Shown piece by piece: positions 865 through 60,717 of a stretch of DNA of 64,000 bases. The first letter of the stretch is position 1. The number at the start of each line of letters is the position of its first letter. The position numbers and the translations under genes are program-made. The notes beneath the pieces are model-generated. The model was not told the DNA's origin, made no database searches, and saw nothing but the letters and a program-made list of their open reading frames with translations. The DNA comes from a virus: positions 54,053 to 118,052 of the IMG/VR virus record IMGVR_UViG_3300030102_005172; one strand, 5' to 3'.

Positions 865-878
865 TTTATTTACCTATC

Positions 879-2663: not shown

Positions 2664-2675
2664 AACTAATTTTTC

Positions 2676-3668: not shown

Positions 3669-3728
3669 AGTAATTTTATAGATTTTAAATTAAACTTTTA
3701 TGTTATAGTCGGTGATAATATATATGAT

Positions 3729-5087: not shown

Positions 5088-5093
5088 AGTTTA

Positions 5094-5124
5094 CTAATAT
5101 ACGAAATTATTTTTTAATATCAAA
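5094..5124 (-). promoter_or_regulatory. Bacteroidota sigmaA-type promoter (TTTG-N19-TATATTAG) for the helicase
   Basis: Matches the -33 TTTG / -7 TAnnTTTG consensus with one mismatch; ATG lies 6 nt downstream. Confidence 0.7.
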
Positions 5125-7285: not shown

Positions 7286-7288
7286 AGA

Positions 7289-8050: not shown

Positions 8051-8089
8051 AATTTACCTTTTTTAATTATTATTTATTTAAGTTAGTCA

Positions 8090-8121
8090 CTAATATACAA
8101 CATTTGGTTGACAAATCCAAA
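8090..8121 (-). promoter_or_regulatory. Bacteroidota sigmaA-type promoter (TTTG-N20-TATATTAG) for the ssb-recA operon
   Basis: Coding strand TTTG GATTTGTCAACCAAATGTTG TATATTAG. Confidence 0.7.
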
Positions 8122-8184
8122 TGTTTTTTCATTTTTTTTATTTTGCAGTTATCACTACTGATATAAATATGTAAAAATATTTAA

Positions 8185-9183: not shown

Positions 9184-9189
9184 ACTTAA

Positions 9190-9579
9190 TTAATTTACAT
9201 CAACTATTCTGAATAAACTTGTCTTTAGTATTTTGTGTCCTTCACCATCGGTTAGAATCATAGAGTTTCTATAATCTTCCCAATTAATTTTATATGTTTT
9301 GTCTGCAACACCACCATTTAAGTCAACAATCAATCTATTTAATGCGTTTATTGTGTAGATAGTGTTTGATTCCTTCTTACGATGTGCTAATATAGTACTT
9401 CCTAAGAATTTTCTTTCATTGTTCGGTATTATATTGTAACTAATCACTAACTCTTGTGATGGTTTTAATTTTAAAATAAATATTTTTCTACTATAAAGGA
9501 TAAATGAGTTTTGAATGTTTTCTAAAACTGATTCAAATTCAGCCTCATTAGTAAATGTACATAATAGTTGTGTTCTCAC
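9190..9579 (-). CDS. hypothetical phage protein
   Basis: 129 aa, GTG start preceded by AGGGA; HRKKESNTIYTINALN segment. Confidence 0.75.
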   Translation of the reverse strand: MRTQLLCTFTNEAEFESVLENIQNSFILYSRKIFILKLKPSQELVISYNIIPNNERKFLGSTILAHRKKESNTIYTINALNRLIVDLNGGVADKTYKINWEDYRNSMILTDGEGHKILKTSLFRIVDVN

Positions 9580-9589
9580 TCATCTTCCC

Positions 9590-11671: not shown

Positions 11672-11683
11672 AACTATAAATAT

Positions 11684-12907: not shown

Positions 12908-12913
12908 CCGTAA

Positions 12914-12945
12914 CTAATATACGAAATATTTATGAGTTTTCCAAA
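12914..12945 (-). promoter_or_regulatory. Bacteroidota sigmaA-type promoter (TTTG-N20-TATATTAG) for the PolA-like gene
   Basis: Coding strand TTTG GAAAACTCATAAATATTTCG TATATTAG; ATG lies 6 nt downstream. Confidence 0.7.
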
Positions 12946-13079
12946 TTTATATGGGTTTCTATTAAGTCTATGATTTGTAATCGTGACTTATCCATATTTG
13001 TCTTGTAGCATAGACTCCAAATGTCTGATACTAAATTCCTTAATTTTAAGTTTTCTTTTTTTAATTCTAAATTTGTCAT
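12930..13079 (-). CDS. small hypothetical protein (49 aa)
   Basis: Manual ORF MTNLELKKENLKLRNLVSDIWSLCY...; starts 1 nt after the upstream stop. Confidence 0.55.
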   Translation of the reverse strand: MTNLELKKENLKLRNLVSDIWSLCYKTNMDKSRLQIIDLIETHINLENS

Positions 13080-13080
13080 A

Positions 13081-13407
13081 TTAATATCCTATAAATTCTA
13101 AATCAACATCACTTACTAATCCTTTTTCAACATAGTAAGGATACTCTTCGTTTAACCAATAGTTTTGAACATTGTCTACTTCACTTATTACATCGTTGTA
13201 TAAGTCAGAAATATCATATCCATCACCATATTGAATACCACCACAAAGAACCATAAGTTCATTTAGGTTGTCCCAATTATCTTTGTTGTTTTTGATACTA
13301 AGTAATATCTCAGCTTTCATAAGGTCTGATACCTTGTCATTGTGGTCATACATTTCAGTTGACCAAGGTTTTGTAATTTTTATTCCGTATTTACTCATAT
13401 TTTTCAT
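13081..13407 (-). CDS. hypothetical protein
   Basis: 108 aa, tightly packed in a putative early operon. Confidence 0.7.
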   Translation of the reverse strand: MKNMSKYGIKITKPWSTEMYDHNDKVSDLMKAEILLSIKNNKDNWDNLNELMVLCGGIQYGDGYDISDLYNDVISEVDNVQNYWLNEEYPYYVEKGLVSDVDLEFIGY

Positions 13408-13408
13408 T

Positions 13409-13627
13409 TTATCTGTACATTGTTACAAAAGAACCGAACTTATCATCGAATACTTTGATTAGATTTTCATAATCACCACTTGTCATTTCATCCATTAGTG
13501 GTTTAAATGGAATATCAAGGTTTCTACATAATCTTTTAGCCAAACCTAAGATTGCGTAAGCATTACCATCAGGTCCTGTTAAATCGATTTCGATTCCTAC
13601 TTTTTTGTTTTCTTTTGATTTTATCAT
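13409..13627 (-). CDS. small phage protein (IDLTGPDGNAY motif)
   Basis: Start moved to the ATG at 13627 because the track start overlaps the promoter at 13646-13677. Confidence 0.7.
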   Translation of the reverse strand: MIKSKENKKVGIEIDLTGPDGNAYAILGLAKRLCRNLDIPFKPLMDEMTSGDYENLIKVFDDKFGSFVTMYR

Positions 13628-13645
13628 ATCTCTTACTTTACATAG

Positions 13646-13677
13646 TAAAGATAACAAAAAGATTTGTAATTGCCAAA
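13646..13677 (-). promoter_or_regulatory. Bacteroidota sigmaA-type promoter (TTTG-N20-TATCTTTA)
   Basis: Consensus spacing; sits at the boundary between structural and early modules. Confidence 0.65.
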
Positions 13678-23024: not shown

Positions 23025-23288
23025 TTATGCCCAAGAATAACTTCCGTCTGAACCATTTAAAACATTTACACCTGCTTCAAATCCATCTGGTAAATCACCA
23101 TCATAGGTAATTTTATCTCTTCCACCATAATCAAACCCATCAGATGGTAGTCCCCATGTATTATCTGCCTCTGCAATTGTAAAGTGAGTAACAGGGTCAC
23201 CTGCAACATCTTGCCAAGTAGCGTATTCTGATTCACCTATCCACTCAACAACATTGTCGTCTTTTCTTCTAACGATTAAATATGCCAT
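23025..23288 (-). CDS. small acidic hypothetical protein
   Basis: 87 aa; SD AAGGAG; has its own late motif and terminator. Confidence 0.75.
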   Translation of the reverse strand: MAYLIVRRKDDNVVEWIGESEYATWQDVAGDPVTHFTIAEADNTWGLPSDGFDYGGRDKITYDGDLPDGFEAGVNVLNGSDGSYSWA

Positions 23289-23335
23289 AGTATCTCTCCT
23301 TTGTATTAATATGTAATAAATATGTCTTTATATAA

Positions 23336-23361
23336 TAAAAAACCCACCAATCGGTGGGTTA
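23336..23361 (-). terminator. intrinsic terminator after tail tube gene
   Basis: AACCCACC-GATT-GGTGGGTT-TTTT. Confidence 0.85.
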
Positions 23362-23394
23362 TTCATTTTGTAATTTCTATTTACAATCCGTATA

Positions 23395-23883
23395 TTAAAA
23401 TTGTAGTATTGCGTAATCGTAAGTAAGTGTCATTTCTACTGTTGCCAAGTCTTCACCTGCGTAGTCCATATCTGAAAAGTTTGCAGATTGGATATATGCA
23501 CCTTTTAATGTCCACTCTTCTACTTTATCACCAACAGGACCCAAACTGTTAAATGTGATGTCTTTTTTATAGAAATCAGAGTATCCATCTCTACCTGTTA
23601 CAGATTCGTGATGTAGTCTTACCCACTCCATTACTGCTTGTGCAGCGGAAGGTACGACTGGGTCGTATAAAGTGATTGCTAAATCTTGCCACTCAGAACG
23701 ACCTTTCACATATCTTCTAACATTGATATGGTCGATGGTAACTTTACCATTGTTTATTTCTGGTCTGGCTGCCGTTTTCACCAAGTATGCAGGGATTCCT
23801 TCGATGTACATGATGAACCTATTTGACATTTTAGGTTCAAAGTTGGTGAACATTATTTCATTTGGGTCTAATAATTGTGCCAT
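23395..23883 (-). CDS. tail tube protein (gp19-like)
   Basis: FEPKMSNRF, VKGRSEW, YKKDI, EEWTLKGA, LTYDYA; follows the sheath gene. Confidence 0.9.
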   Translation of the reverse strand: MAQLLDPNEIMFTNFEPKMSNRFIMYIEGIPAYLVKTAARPEINNGKVTIDHINVRRYVKGRSEWQDLAITLYDPVVPSAAQAVMEWVRLHHESVTGRDGYSDFYKKDITFNSLGPVGDKVEEWTLKGAYIQSANFSDMDYAGEDLATVEMTLTYDYAILQF

Positions 23884-23931
23884 TTAATTCTCCTATTTCT
23901 CTTTCTAATAAATAGTGTTATCTATTATTTT

Positions 23932-26334
23932 TTATTCAGGGAACGCTGCGCCTGTTGGTAGTACATTGAAATCAAGTACTATAAACTCTGCAGTTTTCGC
24001 TGGTTGAATAAAAATCTCTCCTTTTAAGATGTTTCTATCAATAATATCTGGTGTATTATTTGATTCATCCATTATTACTCGGAATGCGAACAAACCTTGT
24101 CTCTGTTGTACTGACTCTAAGTAAGGGTTAACTATACTTAAGAATCTGTTTCTTGTCGCTGCCGTATTATTTTCGAACAATAAGAATCTTGAAGATGATG
24201 CGATGAACTTCTTCAATGCGATTAACAATCTTCTTACATTGATTCTGTCAAGTGCGGATGGTCTAGCTTGGAGTGTTTTTTGTCCAAATACCGTAGCACC
24301 TTGTCCAGGGAATGTAGCGATTGGGTTAATTCTATTTTCGTATAATGTATCTCTTTCATCGTGAGTTAATCTTGATTTAACTTCGATTACATTTGATAAA
24401 CCACCTCTGTTAAGACCTGCTGGTGCGAACCATGGTTCTGCAACTGCGTCATTAAATGCGATAACACCTGGTAATACAACACTTGGTGGTACCCAGACTG
24501 GCTTATTTTTATCTGTATCAAGGATTTTAACCCATGGATGATAAGTTCCAACATAATTTGAATCGAATGAACTTAGTGAGTTAACTACTGTTGCGATTGA
24601 ATCTGAATAAGACCCAGCGTCCATTACATAGAATGCGTCTTGTCTATCTTCTACCATATCTTTTGCAAAAGTAGTTACTGATGAGTGTAGTCTATTGATT
24701 ACACCTGGTGTAACTAACATATTCATATCATACTCATCAGGGTTTGACATTGCGTTAATAGCTTTTCTAAATGCAATCGTACCACCTGCAGTCGCTGATG
24801 ATAAATCTAATCCTTGCATATTACCTGCAACAATGTTTTCTCCTGTAAGTATTGTTCTGTTTGGTGCGAATCCATCAAATCCACCTTGGAATGGTACATT
24901 GAATTTTTTATTGTCTATAATACCATCGTTTAGTGTAATTGCTGCTCCATTTGAAATACAATTACTTAGTAAGAACTTAGAACCAACAGTTTCAGAACTT
25001 GAATCTGGAATTGGATTTAAGTAGTTTAAGTTATCTGTATTTGTAAAGTCATATGAGTATCCTAAGAATGCTCTCTTGTTAAATTCACCTGCAATTGACT
25101 GAGTTAGTTCATATGTTGGACTTGGTATATCGTGTCCACTATGAATTGGTGATTTAACTGCTGCAAATCCGAATGGTACAAGACTTGAATCGATTGCTCC
25201 CGCGTCTACATCAGAATTTACTTCTACTCTAATGTTTACAGATGCGTTTGGATAGTCACCATTTGAAGTAACTTTACCATTGTTATCAACAGTAATATAT
25301 TTGTCACCAATTACTCTCTTAATATAGTTAGGTGAATTAGGGTCTAAGTTAAGTCCACTAAACTCTTCTACTATATTTGGTCTAACATCACTATCTTGTA
25401 CATTTTGACCGAAAACAGAATAAGGAATCTTAGAACTATCTACTCTTCTTACTATTACTGAGAATGTTCCATATTCAGAACCAGGTACTTCATTTGCTGG
25501 TTTGATATCTCTAATACCAATTTTAAATTCGTAGTTTGTTGGATTACCATGTGATAGTGTGTGGAATCTAAATAAGTTTTTAGTAACACCTGATACATCT
25601 TGTGATATGATGAAAGGTGTTGTAGCCTCACAATATGCTTTAGTATAGTCGGTTTTTCTAAGTGTATCTATTTCTACATCACAATTAGGGTCGCTGGCAA
25701 AAGACGATGATTGGAATGTTTTAAAGTTTAGATACAGATAACCGAATTCCGAACCATTTTTAGGAGATGAACCAAATGTTTTTCCAATATACTTGGTAGA
25801 TGTTGGGTTCAATGATGCGGTTGCGATTGCAAGTACTGCTGATTCTGATAAACCTGTTACTGCACCTGAAGCACTTAAATATAGTGCGAAGTTTGAAGCT
25901 GATACTTCTGTTGTTGGTGAAGCGGCTGAACCACTTAAGTTAGTGACTACTGATTTATCAAACGAACCTGTTGAGTTTGCTACATTTCCAAATGGAACTT
26001 TTGTAGTTGGGTGAATCACCGCTGCTACTGAACCACTAATCTTTAAAACTAAAGGTTCAACAGTATAACCACTTTGTCCTAATACTCTAACAATAGTTGC
26101 CGTTCCTGCGTCTTCTAAATACGATTGTGCAGTATATGGTAAATATGAATCTTCTGTCAATCCACCGAATACCTGCGTAAATTCTTGAAAGGACTCGACT
26201 TTGGTTGGTACGAATGCAGGTCCTTTAATACTTTGTCCTATAAGTGCTGCACCTATTTCACCAATACCTTGAGGTAAAAATGATAGGTCTTTTTCTCTTG
26301 TGAATACACCTGGACTAACAATTCTTTCTGCCAT
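23932..26334 (-). CDS. tail sheath protein (gp18-like)
   Basis: SPGVFTRE, WFAPAGLNRG, INPI, FGQKTL, DRINVRRL, P.KTAEFI. Confidence 0.96.
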   Translation of the reverse strand: MAERIVSPGVFTREKDLSFLPQGIGEIGAALIGQSIKGPAFVPTKVESFQEFTQVFGGLTEDSYLPYTAQSYLEDAGTATIVRVLGQSGYTVEPLVLKISGSVAAVIHPTTKVPFGNVANSTGSFDKSVVTNLSGSAASPTTEVSASNFALYLSASGAVTGLSESAVLAIATASLNPTSTKYIGKTFGSSPKNGSEFGYLYLNFKTFQSSSFASDPNCDVEIDTLRKTDYTKAYCEATTPFIISQDVSGVTKNLFRFHTLSHGNPTNYEFKIGIRDIKPANEVPGSEYGTFSVIVRRVDSSKIPYSVFGQNVQDSDVRPNIVEEFSGLNLDPNSPNYIKRVIGDKYITVDNNGKVTSNGDYPNASVNIRVEVNSDVDAGAIDSSLVPFGFAAVKSPIHSGHDIPSPTYELTQSIAGEFNKRAFLGYSYDFTNTDNLNYLNPIPDSSSETVGSKFLLSNCISNGAAITLNDGIIDNKKFNVPFQGGFDGFAPNRTILTGENIVAGNMQGLDLSSATAGGTIAFRKAINAMSNPDEYDMNMLVTPGVINRLHSSVTTFAKDMVEDRQDAFYVMDAGSYSDSIATVVNSLSSFDSNYVGTYHPWVKILDTDKNKPVWVPPSVVLPGVIAFNDAVAEPWFAPAGLNRGGLSNVIEVKSRLTHDERDTLYENRINPIATFPGQGATVFGQKTLQARPSALDRINVRRLLIALKKFIASSSRFLLFENNTAATRNRFLSIVNPYLESVQQRQGLFAFRVIMDESNNTPDIIDRNILKGEIFIQPAKTAEFIVLDFNVLPTGAAFPE

Positions 26335-28101: not shown

Positions 28102-29265
28102 TTATCCTATAAAAATTGGTCTTGGAACTCTGTTTAAAGTTTCCTCTAAAAATTCAGATTCTTCTTTTCGCGCTTCCATTAATGCTCTACGAGAAGTTGA
28201 TTCTAACATTTCTTTCAATTCCGTTAATAAAGTTTCTTTTTCTGCAGATGCCTCATTTCTTAAATCAGCACCATCAAGTGTTACATCCGCACCTGGTATA
28301 GGGATAGAACTAAACTTAGCTCTAATTGCACCTAACATTTCTTTTGCTAATGCCAATGCATATCTTGCAATCCATTGTTTTCCTGCACTATTAATATTTG
28401 TATATGTTAGTCTACCAAATGGTGCATTTGATAAATCACTCACAACATTTGAATTTGCTATTGGTGATTTACTTTCACTTTCTAATGTATAATCAAAATA
28501 TACTTTTGCACCTGCGTCTTTAGATTGTGGGAATGGATATAATCTAATTCGTTTACCATCAACATGGAATCCATATGCAGACTTACGAATAAGGTCATTG
28601 AATTCAATAGCTTGTAATCTTAAAAGGTCATCAAACATAGGTTGCATCATAAATGAGACACCAGGGGAATAATTACCCCATCCAAAAGTTTCTAACATTT
28701 GTTGAGAACCTAAACCTGTACCGATAAATGGGTCAAAGTATCTTATGATTGCTGGTGGTTGTGTATGGAATACTCTTCTAAGTACAATTCCATCACTTAC
28801 TGAACCACTTTCTAAACTTACAACACTTGCGTCACTCAAATCATAAATTTGTTGATTTGCTACCATTGTAAAAGAACCTGTATATACTGTTACTCGTCCA
28901 CCACTTAATCCTTCAGTACCATAATCTTTTGCTATACTAACCATACCACTTAGGTTCGGTGCGATTTCAGTATCTTTTAAATCACCACCCAATGCAGAAC
29001 CTTGTATGGATAACATATTTTCTTTTGCTCTATATTGATTAACTTGTGAAGAATATTCATTAGCTGCCTCTTCAAGACAAGTAAAAAAGTTTATATCTTG
29101 TAATTCGACATCTACGATTGGATATCCTAATCTCTTCGCACACCATTCTGCAACTTTCGGAGCGTCACTTTGAAATTGTGTATCACCATCAAAGTATCCG
29201 AAAGGAGTTGATGAACCACTTGTAAATGAACCTGAGCCAGGCCAAATTGGAATATTTACTGCCAT
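28102..29265 (-). CDS. neck / head-tail adaptor (gp13-like)
   Basis: RLGYPIVDVEL, WIARYALALAKEMLG.IR.KF, VTLDG. Confidence 0.85.
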   Translation of the reverse strand: MAVNIPIWPGSGSFTSGSSTPFGYFDGDTQFQSDAPKVAEWCAKRLGYPIVDVELQDINFFTCLEEAANEYSSQVNQYRAKENMLSIQGSALGGDLKDTEIAPNLSGMVSIAKDYGTEGLSGGRVTVYTGSFTMVANQQIYDLSDASVVSLESGSVSDGIVLRRVFHTQPPAIIRYFDPFIGTGLGSQQMLETFGWGNYSPGVSFMMQPMFDDLLRLQAIEFNDLIRKSAYGFHVDGKRIRLYPFPQSKDAGAKVYFDYTLESESKSPIANSNVVSDLSNAPFGRLTYTNINSAGKQWIARYALALAKEMLGAIRAKFSSIPIPGADVTLDGADLRNEASAEKETLLTELKEMLESTSRRALMEARKEESEFLEETLNRVPRPIFIG

Positions 29266-42084: not shown

Positions 42085-43797
42085 TTACACATAGATATAA
42101 ATCTCATTTGATTCTATTCTAATATTACCTGCGTGGTCTGCTTTTGCAGTTGCTGCGTCATCTGCATTTCCTGAGAATACACCTGCTACATAGTAACCAG
42201 TAGTTCCAGCTGCAAAGTTAGAAGTACTATTGTGAGCAACATCAGTTGTTGATACTGCCAAACGACCATCATTACTATTAAAAGAATAATCCCAAATAAG
42301 TGCTTTACCTTGTTGTGCAGTTCCACTTGTTCCACCAAATACAATACCTGCGTCTTTTGCAGTTGAACCAGAGTTAACCAAAATAAATTGGTCTTCTACA
42401 TTCAAGTTTGTAGTATTAAGTGTTGTTGTTGTACCATTAACTACTAAATCACCAGATAATGTTAAATTAGCAAATGCTACATTATTACCTGTTGCTAGTC
42501 CTTGGTCAATTGCTTTAACTGCTGCTAGGTTAGTTAATTCAGAATCCATTAATGCTCCAGCTGCCGTTACATTAGTCGCATCTGTTACATCTGCACCATC
42601 TTCTACATTTAATGCAGATAACATTTCAGTTTTATTTAAACCTTCTACATCTGTTCCGTTGATTCTTAAGAAATCATCGTCTGCTACATCAGCTGCTGCG
42701 ATTAAAACATTTCCTTCTGAAATACCACTTGCTAATGATTTTACAAATGCAAGATTTGTTACTTCTGAATCCATCAATGCACCTGCATTTGTTACATTTG
42801 TAGTATTTGCAGTTAACTTAGCGTCATTTGCAGTTACTCTTGTACTAAATGAAGCACTTGCTTGTACGAATGAACCTGAAATTCCTGCTTTTGTTAATCC
42901 TTTAACCAATGCTAAATCAGTAACTTCTGAATCCATCAATGCACCTGCTGAAGTTACATTTGCAGTATCAGTAACATCTGCATTATTCTCAACACTAATC
43001 ATTGTTCTAACTTGTGCTGCAGTCAATGCGCTTGGTGCTGCTGAACCTTCTGATACATTACCTAAAATCCTAGCGTCTGCAATATTTGCAAGTTTCGCTA
43101 ATGTAACACCACTATCTTTAATTCTTAGTGCGTCTGAGTTAAGTTCGATTGTTGAATCATCAACACCTACTGCTAATGAAATAGTTCCATTACTTCCTGT
43201 ATTTACAGTAAATGAACCACCACCTGATAAACCATTACCTGCAGTTATTGTGATTGTTGAATCTTGAACACCACCTAATGCAGATACCTGCGCTGATGAT
43301 GATACTAATCCTGCACCTAATCCTGCTAATGCGGTTGCTGATAATGAACCTGAGATTCCTGCTTTTGTTAATGCTTTTACTGTTGCGATTTCTGTAAGTT
43401 CAGAATCCATTAATGCACCTGCACTTGTTACATTTGCAGTATCAGTTACATCTGCTCCGTCTTCAACATTAATTAATGTTCTTACATTTGCAGCAGTTAA
43501 TTCACTTGGTGCTGCTGAACCACCTGAAACATTACCTAATATTCTATCATCGGCGATGTTTGCTATTTTTGCGAGTGTTACACCACTATTTTTTACACTA
43601 ATGGTTCTCGCACCAGAACCATCATATGTGGTTCCTGAGTTAAGTTGGATTGTCGAATCATCTACCGTCAGACTATTTCCAACTTGGGTTGCCGTCCCTG
43701 TTACATTACCAACTAAATTTCCTTTGAATCCGGCGGATGCGGATACATTAAGAAGGTCGGCACTTGAACCTGAGACAATGACTTTTTTCCATCCCAT
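42085..43797 (-). CDS. tail fibre-like protein with internal repeats
   Basis: Four (ADVTD..)NVT.AGALMDSE units; GDLVVNGTTTTLNTTNLNVED fibre motif; SD AGGAG. Confidence 0.75.
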   Translation of the reverse strand: MGWKKVIVSGSSADLLNVSASAGFKGNLVGNVTGTATQVGNSLTVDDSTIQLNSGTTYDGSGARTISVKNSGVTLAKIANIADDRILGNVSGGSAAPSELTAANVRTLINVEDGADVTDTANVTSAGALMDSELTEIATVKALTKAGISGSLSATALAGLGAGLVSSSAQVSALGGVQDSTITITAGNGLSGGGSFTVNTGSNGTISLAVGVDDSTIELNSDALRIKDSGVTLAKLANIADARILGNVSEGSAAPSALTAAQVRTMISVENNADVTDTANVTSAGALMDSEVTDLALVKGLTKAGISGSFVQASASFSTRVTANDAKLTANTTNVTNAGALMDSEVTNLAFVKSLASGISEGNVLIAAADVADDDFLRINGTDVEGLNKTEMLSALNVEDGADVTDATNVTAAGALMDSELTNLAAVKAIDQGLATGNNVAFANLTLSGDLVVNGTTTTLNTTNLNVEDQFILVNSGSTAKDAGIVFGGTSGTAQQGKALIWDYSFNSNDGRLAVSTTDVAHNSTSNFAAGTTGYYVAGVFSGNADDAATAKADHAGNIRIESNEIYIYV

Positions 43798-49755: not shown

Positions 49756-51429
49756 TTATTGACTTATTGCTTCAAGTCCATGACAAATTACTTTACCATA
49801 GAACTCACCTCTTACCATTTGTTTAGCGTATCTTGTCATTACACCTTTTCTTGGTTGGAAGTTAGTTGGGTCATACACAAGCGGAGTCATAATTAATGGA
49901 ATGTATGGTGCGTAAACCGCTCCAGTTTCTAAGAATTGTGAACCTTTGAATCCTAATAGAATTACATTTTCTTTCATGTATGGGTTTTTGTACACTTGGT
50001 ATCTGTTAGCGAATGAACCTACTTGGCTTACACCAAACGCAAATTGCATTTCGTTACCTGTACCATTTGAATGATAACCTGGAATTGACTCGATGATTGT
50101 AGCAACATCTGGTGATACTACCATAAAGTTTGCTCCACCTCTCATAGTCTTCGCGTGAATTTGGTTAGAAACTCTCTGTATTTGCGTACCTAAAGTCTGG
50201 AACCATTGTTGTTGAGTATATCTTTCAACATTTGCGTTAAGACCACTTGATGTGAATGCGTTACCATTCCAAGAGAACCCGATTCTAGCTGACCACTTAG
50301 CTTCAGTTAAAGCATTTTCCAATAACATATCTAAGATTTCTAAGTCAATCTCTTGTGAGATGTACTCAGATAACATAGAAGTTAATTCTGCTTCAGCGTC
50401 AATTGAGTGATAAGCGTTTAAATCTTGTGCGAACTCAGGCGTCCATTGTGCTTTCAACTTTCTTGTCTTAGCTACGATTGGAACACTTCTAAGTTCAACA
50501 TTTAATTCTGGAATACCTAAATCAGAACCACCTGCAGTTGTGTCTTCAAAGTCACCTCTTGTAATATCAGTTGGTTGTTTTTGGTATTTAACTCTTACAC
50601 CTGTAAGTGCAGTTGCGTCAGTTGTGTCACTCAACAATACGATGAATGATACAGTACTTGAACCACTTGCATTTACTTTAGTGTATTCAGGATAGTAAGT
50701 AGAAATACCAGTACCAGTAATTTCAAATCCTCTTACGCCTTCAAAGTCAGCGCCAGGTAAATCTGCGTTTGCTACTGTTAATCTTCTTACTGCTCCTCTA
50801 TTAGCCGTACTTAATGAAGCTGAGAATGCACTATCATAATTAACTGCACTAAAGTTAGCGCTATTAATTGCTAATGAAATTGACTCAGTTGTAAATTTGT
50901 CTGAAGCTGCTGCTGCACCTGCTGCTGCTTGACCTAACGCCTGAGACGATGTTTCGTTAATTGAATATGCAAATCTACCTGCTCCATAAAGACCTTCACT
51001 TGCTTCAGCTGCAGTTTCAGTAATACCGAATACAGAGTCAGTTTGTGAATCTTTACCTGCACCTGTTTCAAAACCAGGTTGTGCAGTTCCATACTTAAAG
51101 TCTAAGTAAAATACAAGACCAGATGGAAGGTTCATTGGTTGTACAGAAACGAATTCCTTCGCAGCGATTTCGCTGAAAATTCTTCTAACCAATGGAAGTG
51201 CTACACCTGCCCACTCTTCAGAGTTTGCAGAAGTACCAGTTGAAGAAGCCTCTTTTACTAATTCTCTAGCTTGGTTCTCAAGTAGAGTAGCAATAGAACT
51301 TCTCTCGAAATCAGACTCGATACCTTCTAAAAGGCCAGTCTTTTCCCACTTAGATACAAGACCTTTTGACTCTTCAGACATTTTCTTGTTAAATCCAGCG
51401 GACTCGTTTAATAATGAATTTGTATCCAT
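49756..51429 (-). CDS. major capsid protein (gp23-like)
   Basis: SVQPMNLPSGL, KTRKLKAQWTPEFAQDL, EIDLEI, YAPYIPL, FQPRKGVMTRY. Confidence 0.97.
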   Translation of the reverse strand: MDTNSLLNESAGFNKKMSEESKGLVSKWEKTGLLEGIESDFERSSIATLLENQARELVKEASSTGTSANSEEWAGVALPLVRRIFSEIAAKEFVSVQPMNLPSGLVFYLDFKYGTAQPGFETGAGKDSQTDSVFGITETAAEASEGLYGAGRFAYSINETSSQALGQAAAGAAAASDKFTTESISLAINSANFSAVNYDSAFSASLSTANRGAVRRLTVANADLPGADFEGVRGFEITGTGISTYYPEYTKVNASGSSTVSFIVLLSDTTDATALTGVRVKYQKQPTDITRGDFEDTTAGGSDLGIPELNVELRSVPIVAKTRKLKAQWTPEFAQDLNAYHSIDAEAELTSMLSEYISQEIDLEILDMLLENALTEAKWSARIGFSWNGNAFTSSGLNANVERYTQQQWFQTLGTQIQRVSNQIHAKTMRGGANFMVVSPDVATIIESIPGYHSNGTGNEMQFAFGVSQVGSFANRYQVYKNPYMKENVILLGFKGSQFLETGAVYAPYIPLIMTPLVYDPTNFQPRKGVMTRYAKQMVRGEFYGKVICHGLEAISQ

Positions 51430-52649: not shown

Positions 52650-52680
52650 TTCTGTCTCTCCTTAATTAAATTTTGGATAA

Positions 52681-52748
52681 TAAGATTATTGGGAATCTTA
52701 ATAACGATTGTTATTATATAAATAAGTGACTACACATTGGGGTGTAGT
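52681..52748 (-). promoter_or_regulatory. leader of scaffold-capsid operon with two CCCAAU-loop hairpins
   Basis: ACTACAC-CCCAAT-GTGTAGT and TAAGATT-CCCAAT-AATCTTA; late motifs at 52717 and 52761. Confidence 0.6.
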
Positions 52749-52809
52749 ATTGTGTTCGGTAATAAATATAGGTCAAAAAGTAAAAACGCTAAAGTGTTTA
52801 CTACTTTAT

Positions 52810-53058
52810 TTAATGGTCTGACCTAATTCTTCTTATATATTCTTTTCGAATTGCGTCCATCTTTTGTTTTCTTTTGATTGCAGATGGTTTAATAAATTCT
52901 TTTCTATCTTTTACTTCTTGTAGTACACCCGACTCTTTTACTTGTCTTTTCCAAAACTTGAGTGCGGCTTCAATATTTCCGTTTACTACTTTTGCAGCTT
53001 TATATCTGCCAGGAATAATCATTTGTTCCTTCCTTACCTTCTTGAATCTTTTTGTCAT
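52810..53058 (-). CDS. rpsU: phage-encoded 30S ribosomal protein bS21
   Basis: NIEAALKFWKRQVKESGVLQEVKDRKEFIKPSAIKR signature. Confidence 0.9.
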   Translation of the reverse strand: MTKRFKKVRKEQMIIPGRYKAAKVVNGNIEAALKFWKRQVKESGVLQEVKDRKEFIKPSAIKRKQKMDAIRKEYIRRIRSDH

Positions 53059-53097
53059 ATATAAAAATTAAAACACCTATCGTTATTGACAGGTGTA

Positions 53098-53105
53098 TAT
53101 AAATA
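53098..53105 (-). promoter_or_regulatory. putative late promoter motif TATTTATA (representative of about 20 copies)
   Basis: Copies or 1-mismatch variants at 8162, 11675, 21778, 23315, 23907, 26372, 26714, 29284, 33026, 41658, 43878, 48965, 49682, 52717, 52761, 56513, 58482, 61112, 62166, all upstream of ORFs. Confidence 0.75.
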
Positions 53106-54316: not shown

Positions 54317-54949
54317 CTAAAAACACTCACAATATCCACCAACTTCACAAATGATGTCTCTCATGATGTTTTGTGCTTTGTTATACCTATAAGTATCCTG
54401 TTTTCTCTCAATACCTTCTTTTAATACACCTTCATTTTTTGGTGACATAAATGCTCCATGAGTTGAAGGATTAGATACAAAGTCCCAACAAATTAATTCA
54501 AAATCATTTTCTACTGCAACAGTACCATCTTCACTAATTTGTTTTACTGAACCCATTCCTCTCGATGAAATACCAACCGTACATCCTGCGTTGATTATTT
54601 CTTGTAATATTTTTCCTGTGGGTGTGTTTAGAATCTCTACTGTTCCAACCACATCATCACCACGCCATTTTACATCTCTTACAATATGAGATGTATTTTT
54701 TAATTCAACTACTGAAGACTCTGGGTGGTCAAGTTCACCATATGCTCTATTCTCAGCAATTTCTCTTCCCATATACTTAGTAACTTCTCGTTTAAGAATA
54801 TCTTTTGGATAGACTCTACCATTTTGATTTTTAGCATTTGCTCTTTGAAGAACACCATTAACTAAAAATCTACCATGTTGGGTTTTTGCCTCAGCCAACA
54901 TAGTAGGAGTTACTTCAAATACCATTGTGTCAATAAGTAATTCTTTCAT
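54317..54949 (-). CDS. prohead protease (gp21-like)
   Basis: NQNGRVYP, GELDHP, GISSRGMGS, DFVSNPSTHGA. Confidence 0.95.
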   Translation of the reverse strand: MKELLIDTMVFEVTPTMLAEAKTQHGRFLVNGVLQRANAKNQNGRVYPKDILKREVTKYMGREIAENRAYGELDHPESSVVELKNTSHIVRDVKWRGDDVVGTVEILNTPTGKILQEIINAGCTVGISSRGMGSVKQISEDGTVAVENDFELICWDFVSNPSTHGAFMSPKNEGVLKEGIERKQDTYRYNKAQNIMRDIICEVGGYCECF

Positions 54950-55100: not shown

Positions 55101-55646
55101 TTATGCACTCAATTCTTTTAGTTGTCGTGCAACTTTTAACATTCTTTCAGAAATTTTTCCAAATCTTCTTTGTGTTGATTTCCAATATTGTCCGTTGTGT
55201 ACACCCATTTCTGTTTTAAGTTTGGAGTTCTGACTTACAATCTTAGTTATTTCCCACATCAGTCTATTAATCTCTTTAATTGAATTGTTTACCTTTTGAT
55301 GAGCTTTCATTGACTCGTCATTTTTGTAATCACGATAACTTGCTTCAACTATCTTTTCTAACTTAGCTTCAATCTTACTGATAGATTCTAATTTTTTAAT
55401 ATTCTTATTTGTCTTCTTAGATTTTTTATATCCAAGTACTTCTATGTGGTCATCGTCCATGTCGTCCTCACTTTTTGCAAATGCGTAAGGAGTTCTTGGT
55501 GGACCTGCTCCACCATCTAAATTACCCGTAACATTTGCCTCATCTTGAGTTTCTTCTTCATCTTCATCTTGTCCGAGTAGAACAGTTTTCTTTTCCTCTA
55601 ACTCATCAAATCTTTTATCAAGTTGTTCAAGTAAAAATTTAGACAT
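55101..55646 (-). CDS. hypothetical head-module protein
   Basis: SD AAGGAG; GPPRTPYAF motif. Confidence 0.75.
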   Translation of the reverse strand: MSKFLLEQLDKRFDELEEKKTVLLGQDEDEEETQDEANVTGNLDGGAGPPRTPYAFAKSEDDMDDDHIEVLGYKKSKKTNKNIKKLESISKIEAKLEKIVEASYRDYKNDESMKAHQKVNNSIKEINRLMWEITKIVSQNSKLKTEMGVHNGQYWKSTQRRFGKISERMLKVARQLKELSA

Positions 55647-56532: not shown

Positions 56533-58443
56533 CTAAATCGTGTCGTCTATTAAATTCTTCTCATCTAATAACCCACCTTTATCATCATGTTGTGAGTCAT
56601 CTTTCAAAGATTCTAATATAACTTTCTTAGTTTTTCTTTTCATTTTACCGAGAGAGTTGTTAAGTGCCTCGGCTTGTTCGTATGCTAATGGTGATAGTTT
56701 ATTTTTACTATATGACTTCTCTGGCTTAGCTGCTCTTCTATTAATTTTCTGACCTAATGGGTCTCTACCAAATGGATTATCATCTGTTTTGTAGTTACCA
56801 GCTTTAGGTGGTCTTCCTGCACCATCAAACCCACCTTCGGGTGCGCCAGGTTCAGTTGGAACACCTGCGTTTCCATATTCATTTTGTGAACCATCCTCAC
56901 CATCACCATTTTGTTGTATCATAGCCAAATCATGTGGAGTACCAAATGATTCACCTGATTTTATTGGGTCATTACCTTCTGATTCTATCTGTTCATGTCT
57001 AAATCCAAGTTTCAAGTCATTAATTACTTTACCTTGTTCAAGTTTCCACTCATCATCTGACATATTAAAGATGTTTTTGTATACCCATTCTTGAGATACC
57101 ATCTTAAGGTCTTTTAAGTCACTAGCTAATCTTGTCTTTTCACTCCAAAGGTTTGCTTTTTCTTGTTCATATATGATTGATGGGTTTGTTAACTCTAATT
57201 CAAAGTTAACTAAGTCAGCATTTTCATATCCTTGTGAGTATAAGTGTATAATAGCAATTTTTGTTAATTCAGATAATACAATTTTCTGTAATCTTTCAAC
57301 AGTTCTTGCAAATCTAATGTCCTCTTGTGCAAGAGTTGCTTTACCTTCAACACCTTCTTCGTATCCAATGAATGCTTTTGGAACTTTAAGTGCTGCCATC
57401 ATTCTATTTCTTAGGTATTCGATGTCATCAATACCACCAAACTCCATTCCTTGTAAAGAATCAATCTCAGTACCACTTTGACCACCTCTTACAGGTAGAT
57501 AATAGTCTTCTAACATATTCATTAAGTTAAACTTAAGATTATAGTCACCTGTATTTTGGTCTAAGTAAGGAACTTTCTTCATTTGGTCAATAATACTTCT
57601 CATGTGATTATCAACTTCACTTGGTGGAATGTTACCTACATCAATTTTGAAGATTCTCTTTTCAGGAGCCCTCATGATTCTGTGAATCATCATTGCGTCT
57701 TCCATAAGAGTTAATTGTTTCCAAGTTTTTCTTGCACCTTCTAATAGTGAACGACCATATGGAAGGAAGTTAGTATCAGTCATTAACCTAAAGTGTGCCA
57801 TTTGGTAGAACTCTAAGTAATCTGCCTTTTTATTTGAAGCGACACCATGAGCTGCACCAGCCGAACCTATCTTAAATCTTACTTCATATGGATTTTCAGG
57901 ATTAAATCCTTCTTCTCTTTCTATTTCATATGCTGAAAGTGGTGATACATTAACGATTCCCACACCCTCTTCAATATCAAGGTGTAAAAAGTAATCACCA
58001 TACTTGTTCATACCTCTAATCCACGACCAAAGATTAAACTCAATGTTTAATACATCATAGAAAAGGTTCTGTAATATCTTTTTTACATTTTCATCATTAG
58101 TTTTAATTCTCAATACATCACCCATATCATTTTTTAGGGTACATTCGTCTGAGTATATATCTAATACAGATGCGATGATTGAATCTTTGTCCATCGCTTC
58201 ATAGTCTGTATATAATTCTAATTTATTTGAGTGATAGTTAAACTGATTATTATATGTTTCCCAATGTTTTCTGGTAGTGTGTAATCTACCGAACCTATCA
58301 TAATAGGAAGAACTCCTCAAGTTACCTTGTGATTGTAGTCTTTGGGTATCAATAGCTTGTGTATTACCTTTACCAATCCTACGAACAACAACTTGAGTGT
58401 TGAATAATTTTTTTAATCTACCAAATAATGATTTATCTGCCAT
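56533..58443 (-). CDS. portal protein (gp20-like)
   Basis: LMEDAMMIHRIMRAPEKRIFKIDVGN, EDYYLP.RG, GTEIDSL, ALKVPK. Confidence 0.96.
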   Translation of the reverse strand: MADKSLFGRLKKLFNTQVVVRRIGKGNTQAIDTQRLQSQGNLRSSSYYDRFGRLHTTRKHWETYNNQFNYHSNKLELYTDYEAMDKDSIIASVLDIYSDECTLKNDMGDVLRIKTNDENVKKILQNLFYDVLNIEFNLWSWIRGMNKYGDYFLHLDIEEGVGIVNVSPLSAYEIEREEGFNPENPYEVRFKIGSAGAAHGVASNKKADYLEFYQMAHFRLMTDTNFLPYGRSLLEGARKTWKQLTLMEDAMMIHRIMRAPEKRIFKIDVGNIPPSEVDNHMRSIIDQMKKVPYLDQNTGDYNLKFNLMNMLEDYYLPVRGGQSGTEIDSLQGMEFGGIDDIEYLRNRMMAALKVPKAFIGYEEGVEGKATLAQEDIRFARTVERLQKIVLSELTKIAIIHLYSQGYENADLVNFELELTNPSIIYEQEKANLWSEKTRLASDLKDLKMVSQEWVYKNIFNMSDDEWKLEQGKVINDLKLGFRHEQIESEGNDPIKSGESFGTPHDLAMIQQNGDGEDGSQNEYGNAGVPTEPGAPEGGFDGAGRPPKAGNYKTDDNPFGRDPLGQKINRRAAKPEKSYSKNKLSPLAYEQAEALNNSLGKMKRKTKKVILESLKDDSQHDDKGGLLDEKNLIDDTI

Positions 58444-58483
58444 AATTTTAGTTTCTAATTATATAGTATACTTATACAATCTA

Positions 58484-58515
58484 TAAATATACAAAAAAAA
58501 TAGTTTATATCCAAA
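58484..58515 (-). promoter_or_regulatory. composite promoter TTTG-N20-TATATTTA(TA) upstream of portal
   Basis: The host-type spacing and the late motif overlap. Confidence 0.55.
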
Positions 58516-58517
58516 TT

Positions 58518-60092
58518 TTATAGTAACCAAGTTAAATCTTGCTCATTACCATGTACATCTTTCTGTTTCCAAGGGTCTCTACCAAGGTTTCTATTACTAT
58601 AAACACCTGGTTGATTCCTTTTTATATGGGCTAATGTCGTTCTTGTTAAGTCCATTCCTTGTTGTCTCAACTTTAATGCGGTATCTCTAACCCAAAGACC
58701 TGTTGAGAATGATATTACTAAGTCATCATTGTAACCTCTTTGTGCCTCTGCTCGGGATCCTGACCAAATGAATACGAACAACTCATCAATTAATCTTTTT
58801 GAACGAATTACAGGTGTTCTTTCTCTCATGTATGTATCTAACTTAGATATAACAAGTGGTCTTGTTCTTGATGTCATAGAAAAACCAGGCACCATATCAT
58901 CTTTTCGTTTTAAATCAAAACCTTTTCTTAGATGGATGTCTTCATCTATATAACCCAAGTCTCTATATGAGTAATATAAGTTAGTATAGTTTCTATCAAT
59001 AACTTCTTGTATTACTGCCCAACCAATATTTGCGTTTTCAATTACAAGTAATGCATTGTTCCAATCAGTTGCAACTGAGGTTAGGAATGCACCATATTGT
59101 TTTGTTTCGATTTTACCTTTATATTCAGCAACCTGTTCCACATTCTCGACATCAAAAACATGAAACGCAGAATAGTCAGTAGAATCCCCACGAGCAACAT
59201 CAGCCACAACAACATAGTCACGAGAATAATTAGGATAATCCCATAACCAATAGTTACCATCAAAACCTCTTTTTTCAATAGGGTCTTTAACATGAGTCTC
59301 TTCATACCATTTTAATGTTGAACCTTCTACTACTGTATAACCTGAAGAAATAAAGTCACAATCACATTCTTGTGCTGCACCTTTTTCACCTAACAATTTT
59401 GTTTGTTGTTCTCTCCAACTTTGGTCTCTTTCAGGATGAACTGACCAATGTAATTCTATTGGATTCCATTGTTCACCATTTTGACCTTGTAACCAAACTT
59501 TGTGAAACCAATTACCAACACCATTTGGAGTTGATAAAACTATTGCACCACCACCCGTTGATAATGTTGATTGTGATGAAGTCCAAATGTCTTCTACATT
59601 ATCAATGAATGCCGCCTCATCAATTACAAGTAAAGATAGTGCTTCAGAACGACCAGCGTCACCTGCTGCAGATGTTGCTTTAATTTGAGAACCATTTTTT
59701 AATCGTAATGATAGTTTGTTGTCCTCTTCTGTATTACCCCTTAACCACGATGGTAAGTTTTGGTGCATGAATCTAACTTTAGTAACTAAGTTTTTTGCAA
59801 CTTCTTGTTTAGTTGCGATTACTAAAACATTTTTATCTTCATGAAACAACATAAGCCAGAGTGAATATCCGGCTGATAGTGTTGATATACCTAATTGTCT
59901 TGATTTTAAAATTACATTGAATCTGTTTTCAGATACTGCGTCCATCAAGTCTTCTTGAAAATCATATAGATTAAAAAGAATCTTACCACGAGATGGATGT
60001 TGAATGTAACAATACTTTCTAAAAAAGTATACGGGGTCTTTAGCACATTTAATGTACTCTTCTTTGATGATTTGTTTTATTGGCTTTGCCAT
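58518..60092 (-). CDS. terminase large subunit (gp17-like)
   Basis: KSRQLGIS, LVIDEAAF, STPNG, ADVARG..DYS, IEN.N.G, NDDLV; start placed at MAKPIK. Confidence 0.95.
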   Translation of the reverse strand: MAKPIKQIIKEEYIKCAKDPVYFFRKYCYIQHPSRGKILFNLYDFQEDLMDAVSENRFNVILKSRQLGISTLSAGYSLWLMLFHEDKNVLVIATKQEVAKNLVTKVRFMHQNLPSWLRGNTEEDNKLSLRLKNGSQIKATSAAGDAGRSEALSLLVIDEAAFIDNVEDIWTSSQSTLSTGGGAIVLSTPNGVGNWFHKVWLQGQNGEQWNPIELHWSVHPERDQSWREQQTKLLGEKGAAQECDCDFISSGYTVVEGSTLKWYEETHVKDPIEKRGFDGNYWLWDYPNYSRDYVVVADVARGDSTDYSAFHVFDVENVEQVAEYKGKIETKQYGAFLTSVATDWNNALLVIENANIGWAVIQEVIDRNYTNLYYSYRDLGYIDEDIHLRKGFDLKRKDDMVPGFSMTSRTRPLVISKLDTYMRERTPVIRSKRLIDELFVFIWSGSRAEAQRGYNDDLVISFSTGLWVRDTALKLRQQGMDLTRTTLAHIKRNQPGVYSNRNLGRDPWKQKDVHGNEQDLTWLL

Positions 60093-60096
60093 ACAT

Positions 60097-60717
60097 TTAC
60101 TTTTTATCCCTGTCTTTCTTAAGTGAAATCTTCCAATACATTCTACCAATTATGATTGGTTGAAAATTTTGATTTACACCTAAGCCCAACCCATAAACAT
60201 TATCTCGTTTTGATTTGTAAAGTAAATCACCAGATAAAAAGTTTATTTGAGATTTATTACCACCGAGACTTACCCCGCCAAAGAATTTTGGTTTATTGAG
60301 GTAAATCTCATTAGTAATGGTTGTGGTGGGTATTAATACTTGGGAGTCAAAGTTTCTGCTGAATATCTTATTCTGAGTAATAGTATCAACAATAGTAATG
60401 TAACCCAATGAATCTAACTTAAGAGTATCTTTATAGACATACTTGCTATAATAATCTTTTAAGATTTCAAGGGTATCGATTTTAGATTTCAATACTATTG
60501 TATCTGTAATAGTTTTAGTCTCAATTCTCGTAGTGTATTTTGGTACATAGACTTTTTTCTCTACCGTCAAAGTATCATATCGTGTTTCCACTTTAGTGAT
60601 AACTTTTTCGGTTTCAATAGTCTCACCACCACCACAAGTTTTTAGTAAGAGTAAAATACAGAGGACAATAATTATTAAATTTTGGAGTTTAGTTCCAACA
60701 TTTTTAAATAGTCCCAT
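60097..60717 (-). CDS. membrane-anchored / lipoprotein-like protein (possible lysis or spanin function)
   Basis: Hydrophobic stretch followed by LLLKT-C-GG; C-terminal amphipathic beta strands. Confidence 0.55.
   Translation of the reverse strand: MGLFKNVGTKLQNLIIIVLCILLLLKTCGGGETIETEKVITKVETRYDTLTVEKKVYVPKYTTRIETKTITDTIVLKSKIDTLEILKDYYSKYVYKDTLKLDSLGYITIVDTITQNKIFSRNFDSQVLIPTTTITNEIYLNKPKFFGGVSLGGNKSQINFLSGDLLYKSKRDNVYGLGLGVNQNFQPIIIGRMYWKISLKKDRDKK

Follow-up and report, generated by a model that had tools for sequence, protein, structure and literature searches.

The stretch of DNA analysed here (64,000 nucleotides, hereafter the window) is the right-hand 64 kb, positions 54,053 to 118,052, of the 118,052-base virus record IMGVR_UViG_3300030102_005172 (G000; CheckV completeness 66%, G+C 34%), and its head-gene module contains a gene for a phage homologue of ribosomal protein bS21. 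This gene lies between the prohead protease gene and the scaffold and major capsid protein (MCP) genes, on the same strand as every neighbour, and its surroundings comprise an S77 prohead protease, three small genes, an acidic scaffold-like protein and a Gp23-type MCP. The window also encodes the large terminase subunit (TerL), portal, sheath, tube, fibres, PhoH, two oxygenases and a replication block, and the rest of G000 adds a DNA polymerase (phrog_262), a clamp with its loader, sugar enzymes and GroEL/GroES. All 154 genes called over 96.5% of the record are on the minus strand; the calls are longest open reading frames (ORFs) with unrefined starts, and the TTG and GTG starts among them, that of TerL included, are probably often wrong.

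The Gp23-type MCP, S77 protease, portal, sheath and tube, found in conserved order, mark this as a T4-like marine phage related to Flavobacterium phage immuto. The nearest MCP records belong to Microcystis phage Mel-JY01 (59.6% identity), which carries RpsU at the position equivalent to that of the window bS21, to an uncultured 484-kb phage (54%) and to immuto (51-52%). The relatives used below, cited by working labels for genomes (G) and loci (L), include G001 (173 kb, 95% complete), G322 (168 kb, 94% complete), G324 (97% complete) and G002, whose MCP and bS21 are 80% and 76% identical to those of the window.

In Flavobacterium johnsoniae, the anti-Shine-Dalgarno (anti-SD) sequence is reported to be held by bS21, bS18 and bS6, with Tyr54 of bS21 stacking on A1534 at the bend of the 3' tail towards the platform (PMC7797042). 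The Y54A mutant is viable, and it raises the output of strong Shine-Dalgarno (SD) reporters by 70% and 3-fold in vivo and 3-fold in vitro while leaving SD-less reporters unchanged (PMC9976891). Phage-encoded bS21 is described as common and is thought to favour phage mRNAs (PMC6375957; PMC9976891, discussion), the bS21 of another phage enters E. coli ribosomes (PMC6375957), and bS21 was found to be highly transcribed alongside structural genes late in infection (PMC9723584). An initial annotation of the window proposed that the phage protein, with Arg in place of Tyr54, could unlock SD-led virion genes in a Bacteroidota host.

The phage bS21 protein and its leader

The assignment to bS21 made in the initial annotation stands on a Pfam match and a PHROG family (Table 2) and on alignment to solved chains, as phmmer found 38 bS21 sequences among the 40 matches listed from such chains; in a six-frame profile search, the window bS21 scores 50 bits. 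The protein has M-I-I-P-G at the start of its core, where cellular proteins have M-L-I-I-P, together with the motif RKEFIKPS. It is preceded by a basic N-terminal extension of 12 residues, which includes six Lys or Arg and one Phe, and a further insertion of 5-6 residues follows I-I-P. N-terminal S21 extensions have been noted in huge phages (PMC7162821), and by its sequence the window protein belongs to this extended phage class of Al-Shayeb et al. (2020). A search of the ESM Atlas with the protein returned viral S21 clusters only.

Public gene calls, including that of this contig, often begin bS21 at Met13 and thereby hide the extension (70-residue forms), probably drawn by an in-frame purine run. 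A start at Met13 behind AAGGAAGGAA was considered and rejected, as the purine run is coding. Since the Arg codons of the extension vary synonymously among relatives (AGG, AGA, CGA, CGT), the purine run is lost in L015 and L017, and L019 has no internal Met, the extension is translated, which supports Met1 as the start.

In the gap-free phmmer alignment with 7jil_z, a bS21 chain of F. johnsoniae, residues 27-70 of the query correspond to 10-53 of the chain, which places Arg71 at the Tyr54 position and Tyr74-Ile75 three residues on. A MAFFT alignment with relatives, in which K57-P58-S59 is invariant, gives the same result, so that the substitution given in the initial annotation is correct, and Arg is found across the whole clade. 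Among the best 120 close homologues in the databases, Arg54 is accompanied by Tyr57 (F. johnsoniae numbering) in 114/114 scorable sequences.

Cellular proteins were sampled by a genome scan with patterns taken from the query's own motifs, a biased choice, and its best 80 loci comprised 78 cellular Bacteroidota (L031-L109 minus L106), one Aminicenantes locus (L106) and L030, a short contig binned with a Flavobacterium metagenome-assembled genome, yet carrying a phage-type bS21. Position 54 was scorable in 76 of the 78 Bacteroidota loci and is Tyr in 71 and His in 5; the window protein thus departs from the Bacteroidia type, which has Tyr, or rarely His, at this position. It shares the N-terminal I-I-P and the RKEFIKPS motif with that type, 79 of the best 80 loci of this biased scan being from Bacteroidota. 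Outside Bacteroidota, the one Aminicenantes locus and the S. aureus alignment also have Lys or Arg there, and scores against the PDB chains do not separate Firmicutes from Bacteroidota for the window protein. The notion that its C-terminal tail is more basic than those of Bacteroidota was abandoned, its net charge of +6 lying within their range of 1-6 (median +4). As to the cellular rpsU genes of the scan set, five with Bacteroidetes or Flavobacteriaceae labels (L089, L090, L093, L104 and L105) have a long SD (AAAGAAAGGAGG onward), as in McNutt et al., and the remaining leaders are A-rich and lack an SD.

The phage bS21 gene has an SD-less leader, as claimed initially, and upstream of it lie a hairpin and a late-promoter-like motif (Table 2). 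The hairpin is kept in L003, L005, L015 and L017 despite differing stem sequence, and it looks as if this terminator-like element insulates bS21 from the upstream genes and makes it an insulated late unit. Here the sole pointer to late transcription of bS21 is the promoter-like motif. Contigs from four marine metatranscriptome studies span the MCP and scaffold genes and almost none contains bS21; such contigs cannot show transcript level, ends or absence, and may derive from DNA. The motif, TATTTATA, has 24 sense-strand copies, where shuffles give 6.5, and 20 of the 24 sites are intergenic or at gene edges, 3-111 nt ahead of starts. It is also enriched in G001, G002, G003 and immuto, and it precedes SD-less genes too. 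As a side observation, the motif resembles the T4 late promoter, further examples in the window being those at 62166-62173, 58482-58489 and 26372-26379.

Shine-Dalgarno sites on virion genes

A strong SD was defined as one that pairs with an 8-nt anti-SD core at a duplex energy of -5.7 kcal/mol or lower and lies 3-12 nt from the start codon. The virion module was taken as window positions 14308-63917 minus TerL, PhoH, two oxygenases, a glycosyltransferase and bS21, the boundary between gene classes being set by position and PHROG category. With these definitions, 15/37 genes of the virion module have a strong SD, compared to 4/117 of all other genes (Fisher p = 7.7e-8), and the median SD energies are -4.2 and -0.4 kcal/mol, respectively (Mann-Whitney p = 8e-6). 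When only ATG starts of at least 60 codons are counted, strong SDs precede 15/33 virion genes and 2/86 others. The chance rate, estimated from 2395 internal ATGs, is 5.5%, which the virion genes exceed 7.5 times, whereas the early and replication blocks are at chance level for weak and strong SDs alike. The difference in SD strength between gene classes, for which the initial annotation had asked that energies be computed, is therefore real, and it is conserved in relatives.

All SDs named in the initial annotation are present, at 3-9 nt from the start across the virion genes (Table 2); they are 5-6 nt long, with energies of -5.8 to -8.4 kcal/mol. The leaders of nrdA, nrdB, the UvsX/RecA-like gene, the DnaB-like helicase gene, the glycosyltransferase gene at 611, the oxygenase gene at 33003 and bS21 lack an SD, as had been said, and the two exceptions that had been named, a portal gene without an SD and an ssb gene with AAGGT, hold as well. 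No gene matching the PolA-like one of the initial annotation was recognised, the DNA polymerase gene of G000 (phrog_262) being located outside the window. The statement that SDs precede most structural genes was slightly generous, as 15 strong and 7 weak SDs were found among the 34 ATG-started virion genes of at least 50 amino acids.

The same split is seen in G001, G002 and Mel-JY01, where the orthologous scaffold, MCP, sheath, tube, 181-residue and baseplate genes have SDs within differing flanks, and where zero SDs were found on replication genes. The SD words differ among orthologues (GAGGA, CGGAG, TGGAG, AAGGAG) and their position is kept. This bears on the idea that the purine motifs are not ribosome-binding sites at all but parts of late promoters, RNA-stability elements or products of chance. 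Their location in late-gene leaders near TATTTATA would suit such an origin, which is nonetheless very improbable given the fixed spacing, the match to the anti-SD core, the kept position of varying words, the excess over the internal-ATG rate and the presence of TATTTATA ahead of SD-less genes as well.

The SD-less genes have features of their own. In G000, G001 and G002, they are biased towards T at positions -1 (54-61%) and -2 (35-46%) and towards a purine at -3, with A peaking at -11 (54-63%), and many of their leaders end in A[AG]TT; in immuto, A peaks occur at -13/-12 instead. A bipartite early-like motif (TTTG, 18-21 nt, TAnnTTAG), frequently with a TTAACA-rich A tract upstream, has 7 sense-strand copies against 1.7 in shuffles, and 11 copies in G001, 10 in G002, 2 in immuto and 0 in Mel-JY01. 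Its sites include window positions 12914-12945, 5094-5124 and 8090-8121, and others lie outside the window. It ends 6 nt from the ATG of the helicase gene (start 5087) and of a gene for a 407-residue protein (start 12907), the mRNAs of which may be leaderless or nearly so. Promoters were discarded as a guide to the host type, because the exact Bacteroidota -33/-7 pattern is unenriched even in immuto and a generic sigma-70 layout fits the bipartite motif of the window equally well.

Relatives with and without bS21, and the host

Whole-genome SD frequencies (Table 1) are raised in G000, G001, G002 and Mel-JY01. Immuto, in whose whole genome no bS21 is found, clearly avoids SD-like leaders. G003, which has fibre, oxygenase and small genes in common with the window (47-81% identity), has a canonical 64-residue bS21 with His54, and its large structural genes are SD-less.

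Table 1. Percentage of genes with strong or weak SDs (ATG starts of at least 60 amino acids, main strand) and the corresponding null values from the internal ATGs of each genome
Genome	Strong	Weak	Null strong	Null weak
G000	14.5%	18.8%	5.4%	10.1%
G001	16.5%	17.7%	5.8%	10.1%
G002	13.2%	15.8%	6.4%	9.4%
Mel-JY01	15.4%	32.7%	4.1%	7.4%
immuto	0.5%	1.6%	8.6%	10.7%
G003	5.3%	3.5%	4.9%	9.4%

For a view across the family, 32 loci were fetched around three extended bS21 proteins, an alignment of 31 aromatic-54 proteins being too diverse for a locus scan. Proteins with Arg54 and proteins with an aromatic residue at that position occur side by side in the extended phage-type family, and many of the aromatic-54 ones have tails of the Bacteroidia kind. 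The loci share the gene order TerL, portal, 286-residue protein, 181-residue protein, protease, small genes, bS21, scaffold and MCP. The bS21 leader is without an SD in 28/28 scorable loci, amid SD-led genes, while the scaffold orthologue has a strong SD in 28/30 (the two misses are probably start miscalls) and the MCP orthologue has 8 strong and 13 weak SDs in 21. TerL has a strong SD in 0/20 loci and portal in 3/25.

A complementary set was anchored on the immuto MCP. From the best 80 of 586 relatives, 30 with less than 3 kb upstream were dropped, and in 48 of the 50 loci kept no bS21 was found with a profile from 120 family members; a complete 162-kb MCP relative likewise lacks bS21. In the 48 bS21-negative loci, 26/492 genes have a strong SD (5.3%), the MCP gene is without an SD in 28/32 scorable cases and the gene preceding it in 22/32, whereas the two bS21-positive loci have strong SDs on both. 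A FastTree phylogeny of 60 full-length MCPs groups the 28 SD-negative rows, without exception, in a single starred clade that includes immuto and is sister to the Tyr54 clade, and the other side of the tree holds 18 bS21-positive rows and a four-row clade (L231, L243, L255 and L258). No cultured Bacteroidota phage with bS21 that could serve as a control was found by tblastn with a canonical phage bS21.

The initial reading presupposed a Bacteroidota host. G002 encodes a 245-residue protein with a cohesin domain, a type IX secretion system (T9SS) type A sorting domain (TIGR04183, 45.2 bits against a cut-off of 23) and a hydrophobic N-terminus, read as a putative signal peptide. This protein (L146 9235-9972) is 50% identical over its length to one of immuto (L129 12691-13422), and both would presumably be exported by the T9SS of the host during infection. 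G322, the bS21 of which has Arg54 and Trp57, has a T9SS-sorted ORF as well. The T9SS is not known outside Bacteroidota. Because G002 and G322 both fall in the starred 11-row MCP clade that contains the window, a Bacteroidota host of the window phage is now likely, by extension from its close kin.

Two other host clues were tried and rejected: GroEL is non-discriminating, at 49-51% identity to four Bacteroidota genomes and one Aminicenantes, and a nucleotide-sugar epimerase reaches 41% at best in 301 Bacteroidota genomes. The cyanophage mark psbA is absent from Mel-JY01, G001, G002 and immuto.

The features of the window that bear on these comparisons are collected in Table 2.

Table 2. Features of the window, with positions counted from its first letter
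Feature	Position	Strand	Remarks
Phage bS21, 82 aa	52810..53058	-	PF01165 Ribosomal_S21, 49.5 bits against a cut-off of 27, E 3.4e-13, residues 24-73; phrog_21469
Last 14 nt of bS21 leader, A/U-only, SD-less	53059..53072	-	TATAT directly before ATG
Hairpin, 9-bp stem then T-run	53073..53096	-	Between motif and bS21 start; RNA fold -12.8 kcal/mol, z -3.8; terminator-like
Late-promoter-like motif TATTTATA	53098..53105	-	39 nt upstream of bS21 ATG; putative function
bS21-scaffold spacer, 160 nt	52650..52809	-	Hairpin 52729-52748; TATTTATA 52717-52724; scaffold SD AAGGAG 52658-52663
Acidic scaffold-like protein, 398 aa	51453..52649	-	SD AAGGAG (start 52649), -7.9 kcal/mol, spacing 7
MCP, Gp23 type	49756..51429	-	PF07068, E 2.7e-79; SD GAGGA at 51437-51441 (start 51429)
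Prohead core protease (S77)	54317..54949	-	Leader GGGAAGG, spacing 3, G-rich; doubtful SD
181-aa head-module protein	55101..55646	-	SD AAGGAG (start 55646)
Portal and large terminase	56533..60149	-	Both SD-less; TerL start uncertain, longest ORF begins at TTG
206-aa protein	60097..60717	-	SD AGGAG (start 60717)
Baseplate/fibre-connector protein, 1449 aa	44581..48930	-	SD GGAG
Tail fibre protein	42085..43797	-	SD AGGAG (start 43797)
278-aa protein and collagen-like fibre, 1184 aa	37168..41569	-	SD GAGGA (278 aa); SD AAGGGG (fibre, start 40722)
Head-tail adaptor-like (gp13-like) protein	28102..29265	-	SD GAGGAG (start 29265)
Sheath, tube and 87-aa protein	23025..26334	-	SD AGGAG (sheath, start 26334); AGGAG (tube, start 23883); AAGGAG (87 aa, start 23288)
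Two large virion-module proteins, 798 and 926 aa	16348..21524	-	SD AAGGGG (798 aa, start 21524); GAGGAG (926 aa, start 19128)
Replication/nucleotide block: thioredoxin, NrdA, NrdB, DnaB-like helicase, exonuclease, UvsX-like, ssb, others	628..13657	-	Zero strong SDs

Several further features lie apart from the bS21 question. The two giant collagen-like fibre genes (1367 and 1184 residues, window 33045-40722) are rich in repeat matches, and their homologues in G003 reach 2704 residues. Outside the window, at 5.3-7.5 kb of G000 (L027 5328-7476), about 2 kb are nearly without ORFs and have a raised G+C content, several hairpins, repeats of TTGTAACAC and TTGTTGATAAC and a tRNA-Arg(TCT) at L027 5522-5596; this may be an origin or a regulatory region. 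The GroEL (532 residues) and GroES genes lie at L027 10457-12055 and 13250-13561. At L029 14126-15653, two adjacent Mom-like DNA-modification genes stand beside glycosyltransferases, a heptose-pathway set and a UDP-glucose dehydrogenase, which suggests modified DNA or a glycosylated virion. G001 encodes, in addition, a 1205-residue protein with a poly(A) polymerase/CCA-adding head domain (L111 8285-11902), as well as ClpP and Hsp20 (L113 3505-4173 and 7213-7563) and GroEL/ES.

A possible role in selective translation

The likeliest of the readings considered, which we advance tentatively and as somewhat less probable than not, is that the N-extended phage bS21 enables SD-blind ribosomes of the host to read SD-led virion mRNAs, an effect that Arg54 would strengthen at most. 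Native SD-blind host ribosomes would translate the early, replication and bS21 mRNAs, which are all SD-less. Phage bS21 would build up late and swap into 30S subunits in place of host bS21, where it could free the 3' tail of the 16S rRNA from the bS21/bS18/bS6 pocket or stabilise the SD duplex. This effect might come from the N-terminal extension and the insertion, with a contribution in the window's clade from the Tyr54-to-Arg change. Once the anti-SD is usable, the abundant SD-led virion mRNAs would gain over host and SD-less phage mRNAs. In favour of this proposal stand the identity of the protein, the SD split and its conservation among orthologues, the SD-less bS21 leaders, the scarcity of SDs in immuto and in the 48 bS21-negative loci, the SD-less structural genes of G003 with its canonical bS21, the T9SS-sorted proteins of G002 and G322, the contrast between Arg54 in the clade and Tyr or His in cellular Bacteroidota, and the published results on Tyr54, Y54A and phage bS21 given above.

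Several observations weigh against this proposal. In the Tyr54 (L155-L172, L185-6) and Phe54 (L019, L165-6) lineages, the scaffold and MCP genes are likewise SD-led and bS21 is likewise SD-less, as clearly as in the Arg54 lineages, so that SD use does not hinge on residue 54. From a protein with Tyr54, continued sequestration of the anti-SD would be expected, in line with the argument of Chen et al. Furthermore, an aromatic residue (Tyr or Trp) is kept at +3 in the Arg54 forms and might replace Tyr54 in stacking. Autoregulation in F. johnsoniae needs pairing below -13 kcal/mol, and the phage SDs, of 5-6 nt, reach -5.8 to -8.4 kcal/mol on a scale that is not strictly comparable. In the four-row clade of the MCP tree, the MCP gene has an SD and no bS21 is found at the syntenic place or elsewhere in contigs that are 10-32% complete. 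Moreover, the tree needs two changes in bS21 and one in SD presence, and its two independent pairs are divided into one that is concordant and one that is without a difference; the association between bS21 and SDs thus amounts roughly to one evolutionary event and one possible counter-example, for which statistical support is impossible. On the side of the host, no T9SS protein was found in G000, at 66% completeness, in G001 (95%) or in G324 (97%). For Mel-JY01, the closest relative in culture, the host given, which is known from the record only, is Microcystis; about half of its genes have SD-like leaders (25 strong and 53 weak of 162, 48%), and its bS21, which has no aromatic residue near position 54, is nearer to Firmicutes chains than to those of F. 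johnsoniae.

The argument of the initial annotation that the Tyr54-to-Arg change makes the SDs usable thus falls, and this change is an enhancer at most, not the switch itself. The share of strong SDs per lineage is about 35-70% with Arg54 and about 15-39% with Tyr54, in a handful of lineages. What stands of the initial interpretation is the gene, the SD split, the SD-less bS21, Arg54 and the likely host; the steps of the mechanism are hypothetical.

The data on Mel-JY01 and on the tree could also mean that the hosts of the bS21-bearing branches read SDs wholly or partly, and that a strong SD is no more than a sign of high abundance among late proteins. The role of phage bS21 would then lie in ribosome repletion, in competition during assembly or in the recognition of other leader features. 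The Microcystis record and the SD-rich leaders of Mel-JY01 are consistent with this explanation, as is L255, a 34-kb IMG/VR contig of 53% G+C, which has an MCP SD and no bS21 in the fragment and which probably belongs to a branch on a quite different, SD-reading host. SD presence as a single change on the MCP tree is what a host shift would give, and the basic residue at position 54 of the Aminicenantes locus and the S. aureus alignment agrees with it as well. However, the T9SS-sorted proteins of G002 and G322 point to Bacteroidota for the window's clade, and Tyr54 lineages with Bacteroidia-type tails are sister to the Flavobacterium-phage clade. It would also be unusual, if SDs helped from the start of infection, that the early and replication genes are not enriched in them, and bS21, needed in large amounts, is never SD-led. 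An SD-reading host is the main rival explanation, less probable than not and somewhat less probable than the reading above.

The many family members that keep Tyr54 allow a further explanation, namely that phage bS21 acts like that of the host and hides the anti-SD, while a pool of bS21-free 30S subunits arising from infection, made up of new or damaged subunits or of subunits stripped of bS21 by a protease, reads the SDs, and the extension picks phage mRNAs by some other feature. F. johnsoniae ribosomes without bS21 do translate SD mRNAs better, McNutt et al. speculate on a phage protease against host bS21, and G001 encodes ClpP, Hsp20 and GroEL/ES. Nevertheless, this explanation requires two ribosome pools and leaves the invariant Arg54 of the close homologues unaccounted for, and ClpP was not found among the PHROGs of the 66%-complete G000, so that it appears improbable.

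The proposal that phage bS21 itself makes host ribosomes SD-reading can be set against published systems. In the freshwater Bacteroidetes phages of Chen et al. (2022; PMC9723584), bS21 likewise lies within the TerL-portal-protease-MCP module, and it was proposed to enter Bacteroidetes ribosomes and to favour phage transcripts late, as is proposed here. Those phages are of 293-331 kb with bS21 on the opposite strand, whereas the present gene shares the strand of its neighbours and the phage measures about 175 kb, judged from its relative G001. Residue 54 is Tyr or another aromatic there, in contrast to the Arg of the window; an aromatic-54 was reported in all 61 proteins, and the phage protein was judged host-like in action. 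The accessible text of that paper contains no analysis of SDs on phage genes. Among the S21 genes of huge phages (PMC7162821, PMC7550191), the leaders of the Bacteroidetes type are mostly listed with ribosome-binding site 'None', as in the window. The rows seen in the supplement of Watson et al. (2020) give the site of the S21 gene itself and not of gene classes, and those authors report no clear relation between phage and host ribosome-binding sites (PMC7550191); the accessible parts of Al-Shayeb et al. (2020) and Watson et al. (2020) do not describe a split between virion and other genes. A preprint reports that Cellulophaga phages lack anti-SD binding, as does their host.

The F. johnsoniae system shares with the present proposal the same protein position, the sequestration of the anti-SD and an SD selectivity that follows the state of bS21 (PMC7797042, PMC9976891). 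Its SD-reading ribosomes lack bS21 or carry an engineered mutant, whereas a natural viral variant is proposed here, and its sole strong natural target reported is rpsU (below -13 kcal/mol), whereas a set of virion genes with SDs of 5-6 nt is concerned here. The remarks on phages in McNutt et al. (2023; PMC9976891), as far as the accessible text goes, deal with replacement and with a protease that phages may encode, whereas freeing of the anti-SD is not among them. Pelagibacter phage HTVC008M is also a T4-like marine myophage with a host-derived bS21 that enters ribosomes, but this protein is alphaproteobacterial, 54% identical to that of its host, and the accessible text proposes no link to SDs (PMC6375957); HTVC008M is not among the tblastn matches of the window bS21 at E <= 1e-3. 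Immuto (vB_FspM_immuto, MW353176) has the same head-module synteny, but it has no bS21 and its SD-like leaders are depleted. A full-text search of the literature, with the supplements of Chen et al. (2022) and Al-Shayeb et al. (2020) outside its scope, found no statement that SDs are confined to the late genes of bS21 phages or that a phage bS21 frees the anti-SD.

To conclude, the function of phage-encoded bS21 has been a standing question since 2019, and the published proposals, in their accessible text, stop at the replacement of host bS21 in favour of phage mRNAs, without naming the mRNA feature. The present locus and its relatives provide a feature that can be checked, namely SDs on virion genes and none on early genes or on bS21 itself. 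Relatives without bS21 on hosts from the same phylum avoid SDs, and the ribosomes of this phylum are known to hide the anti-SD behind bS21. As F. johnsoniae reporters, Y54A and C-terminal truncation strains and a cryo-electron microscopy baseline exist, the idea is testable in weeks. The fuller picture, in which Bacteroidia ribosomes would be turned into SD readers by a viral protein, translation would be split in time, the extension would be active and Arg54 would be a later reinforcement, is possible but rather doubtful. Should it hold, nature would offer a clear example of ribosomes re-specialised by a virus, with consequences for gene calling and host prediction in Bacteroidota phages. If false, the SD pattern would still mark a difference in host or in translation within one phage family.

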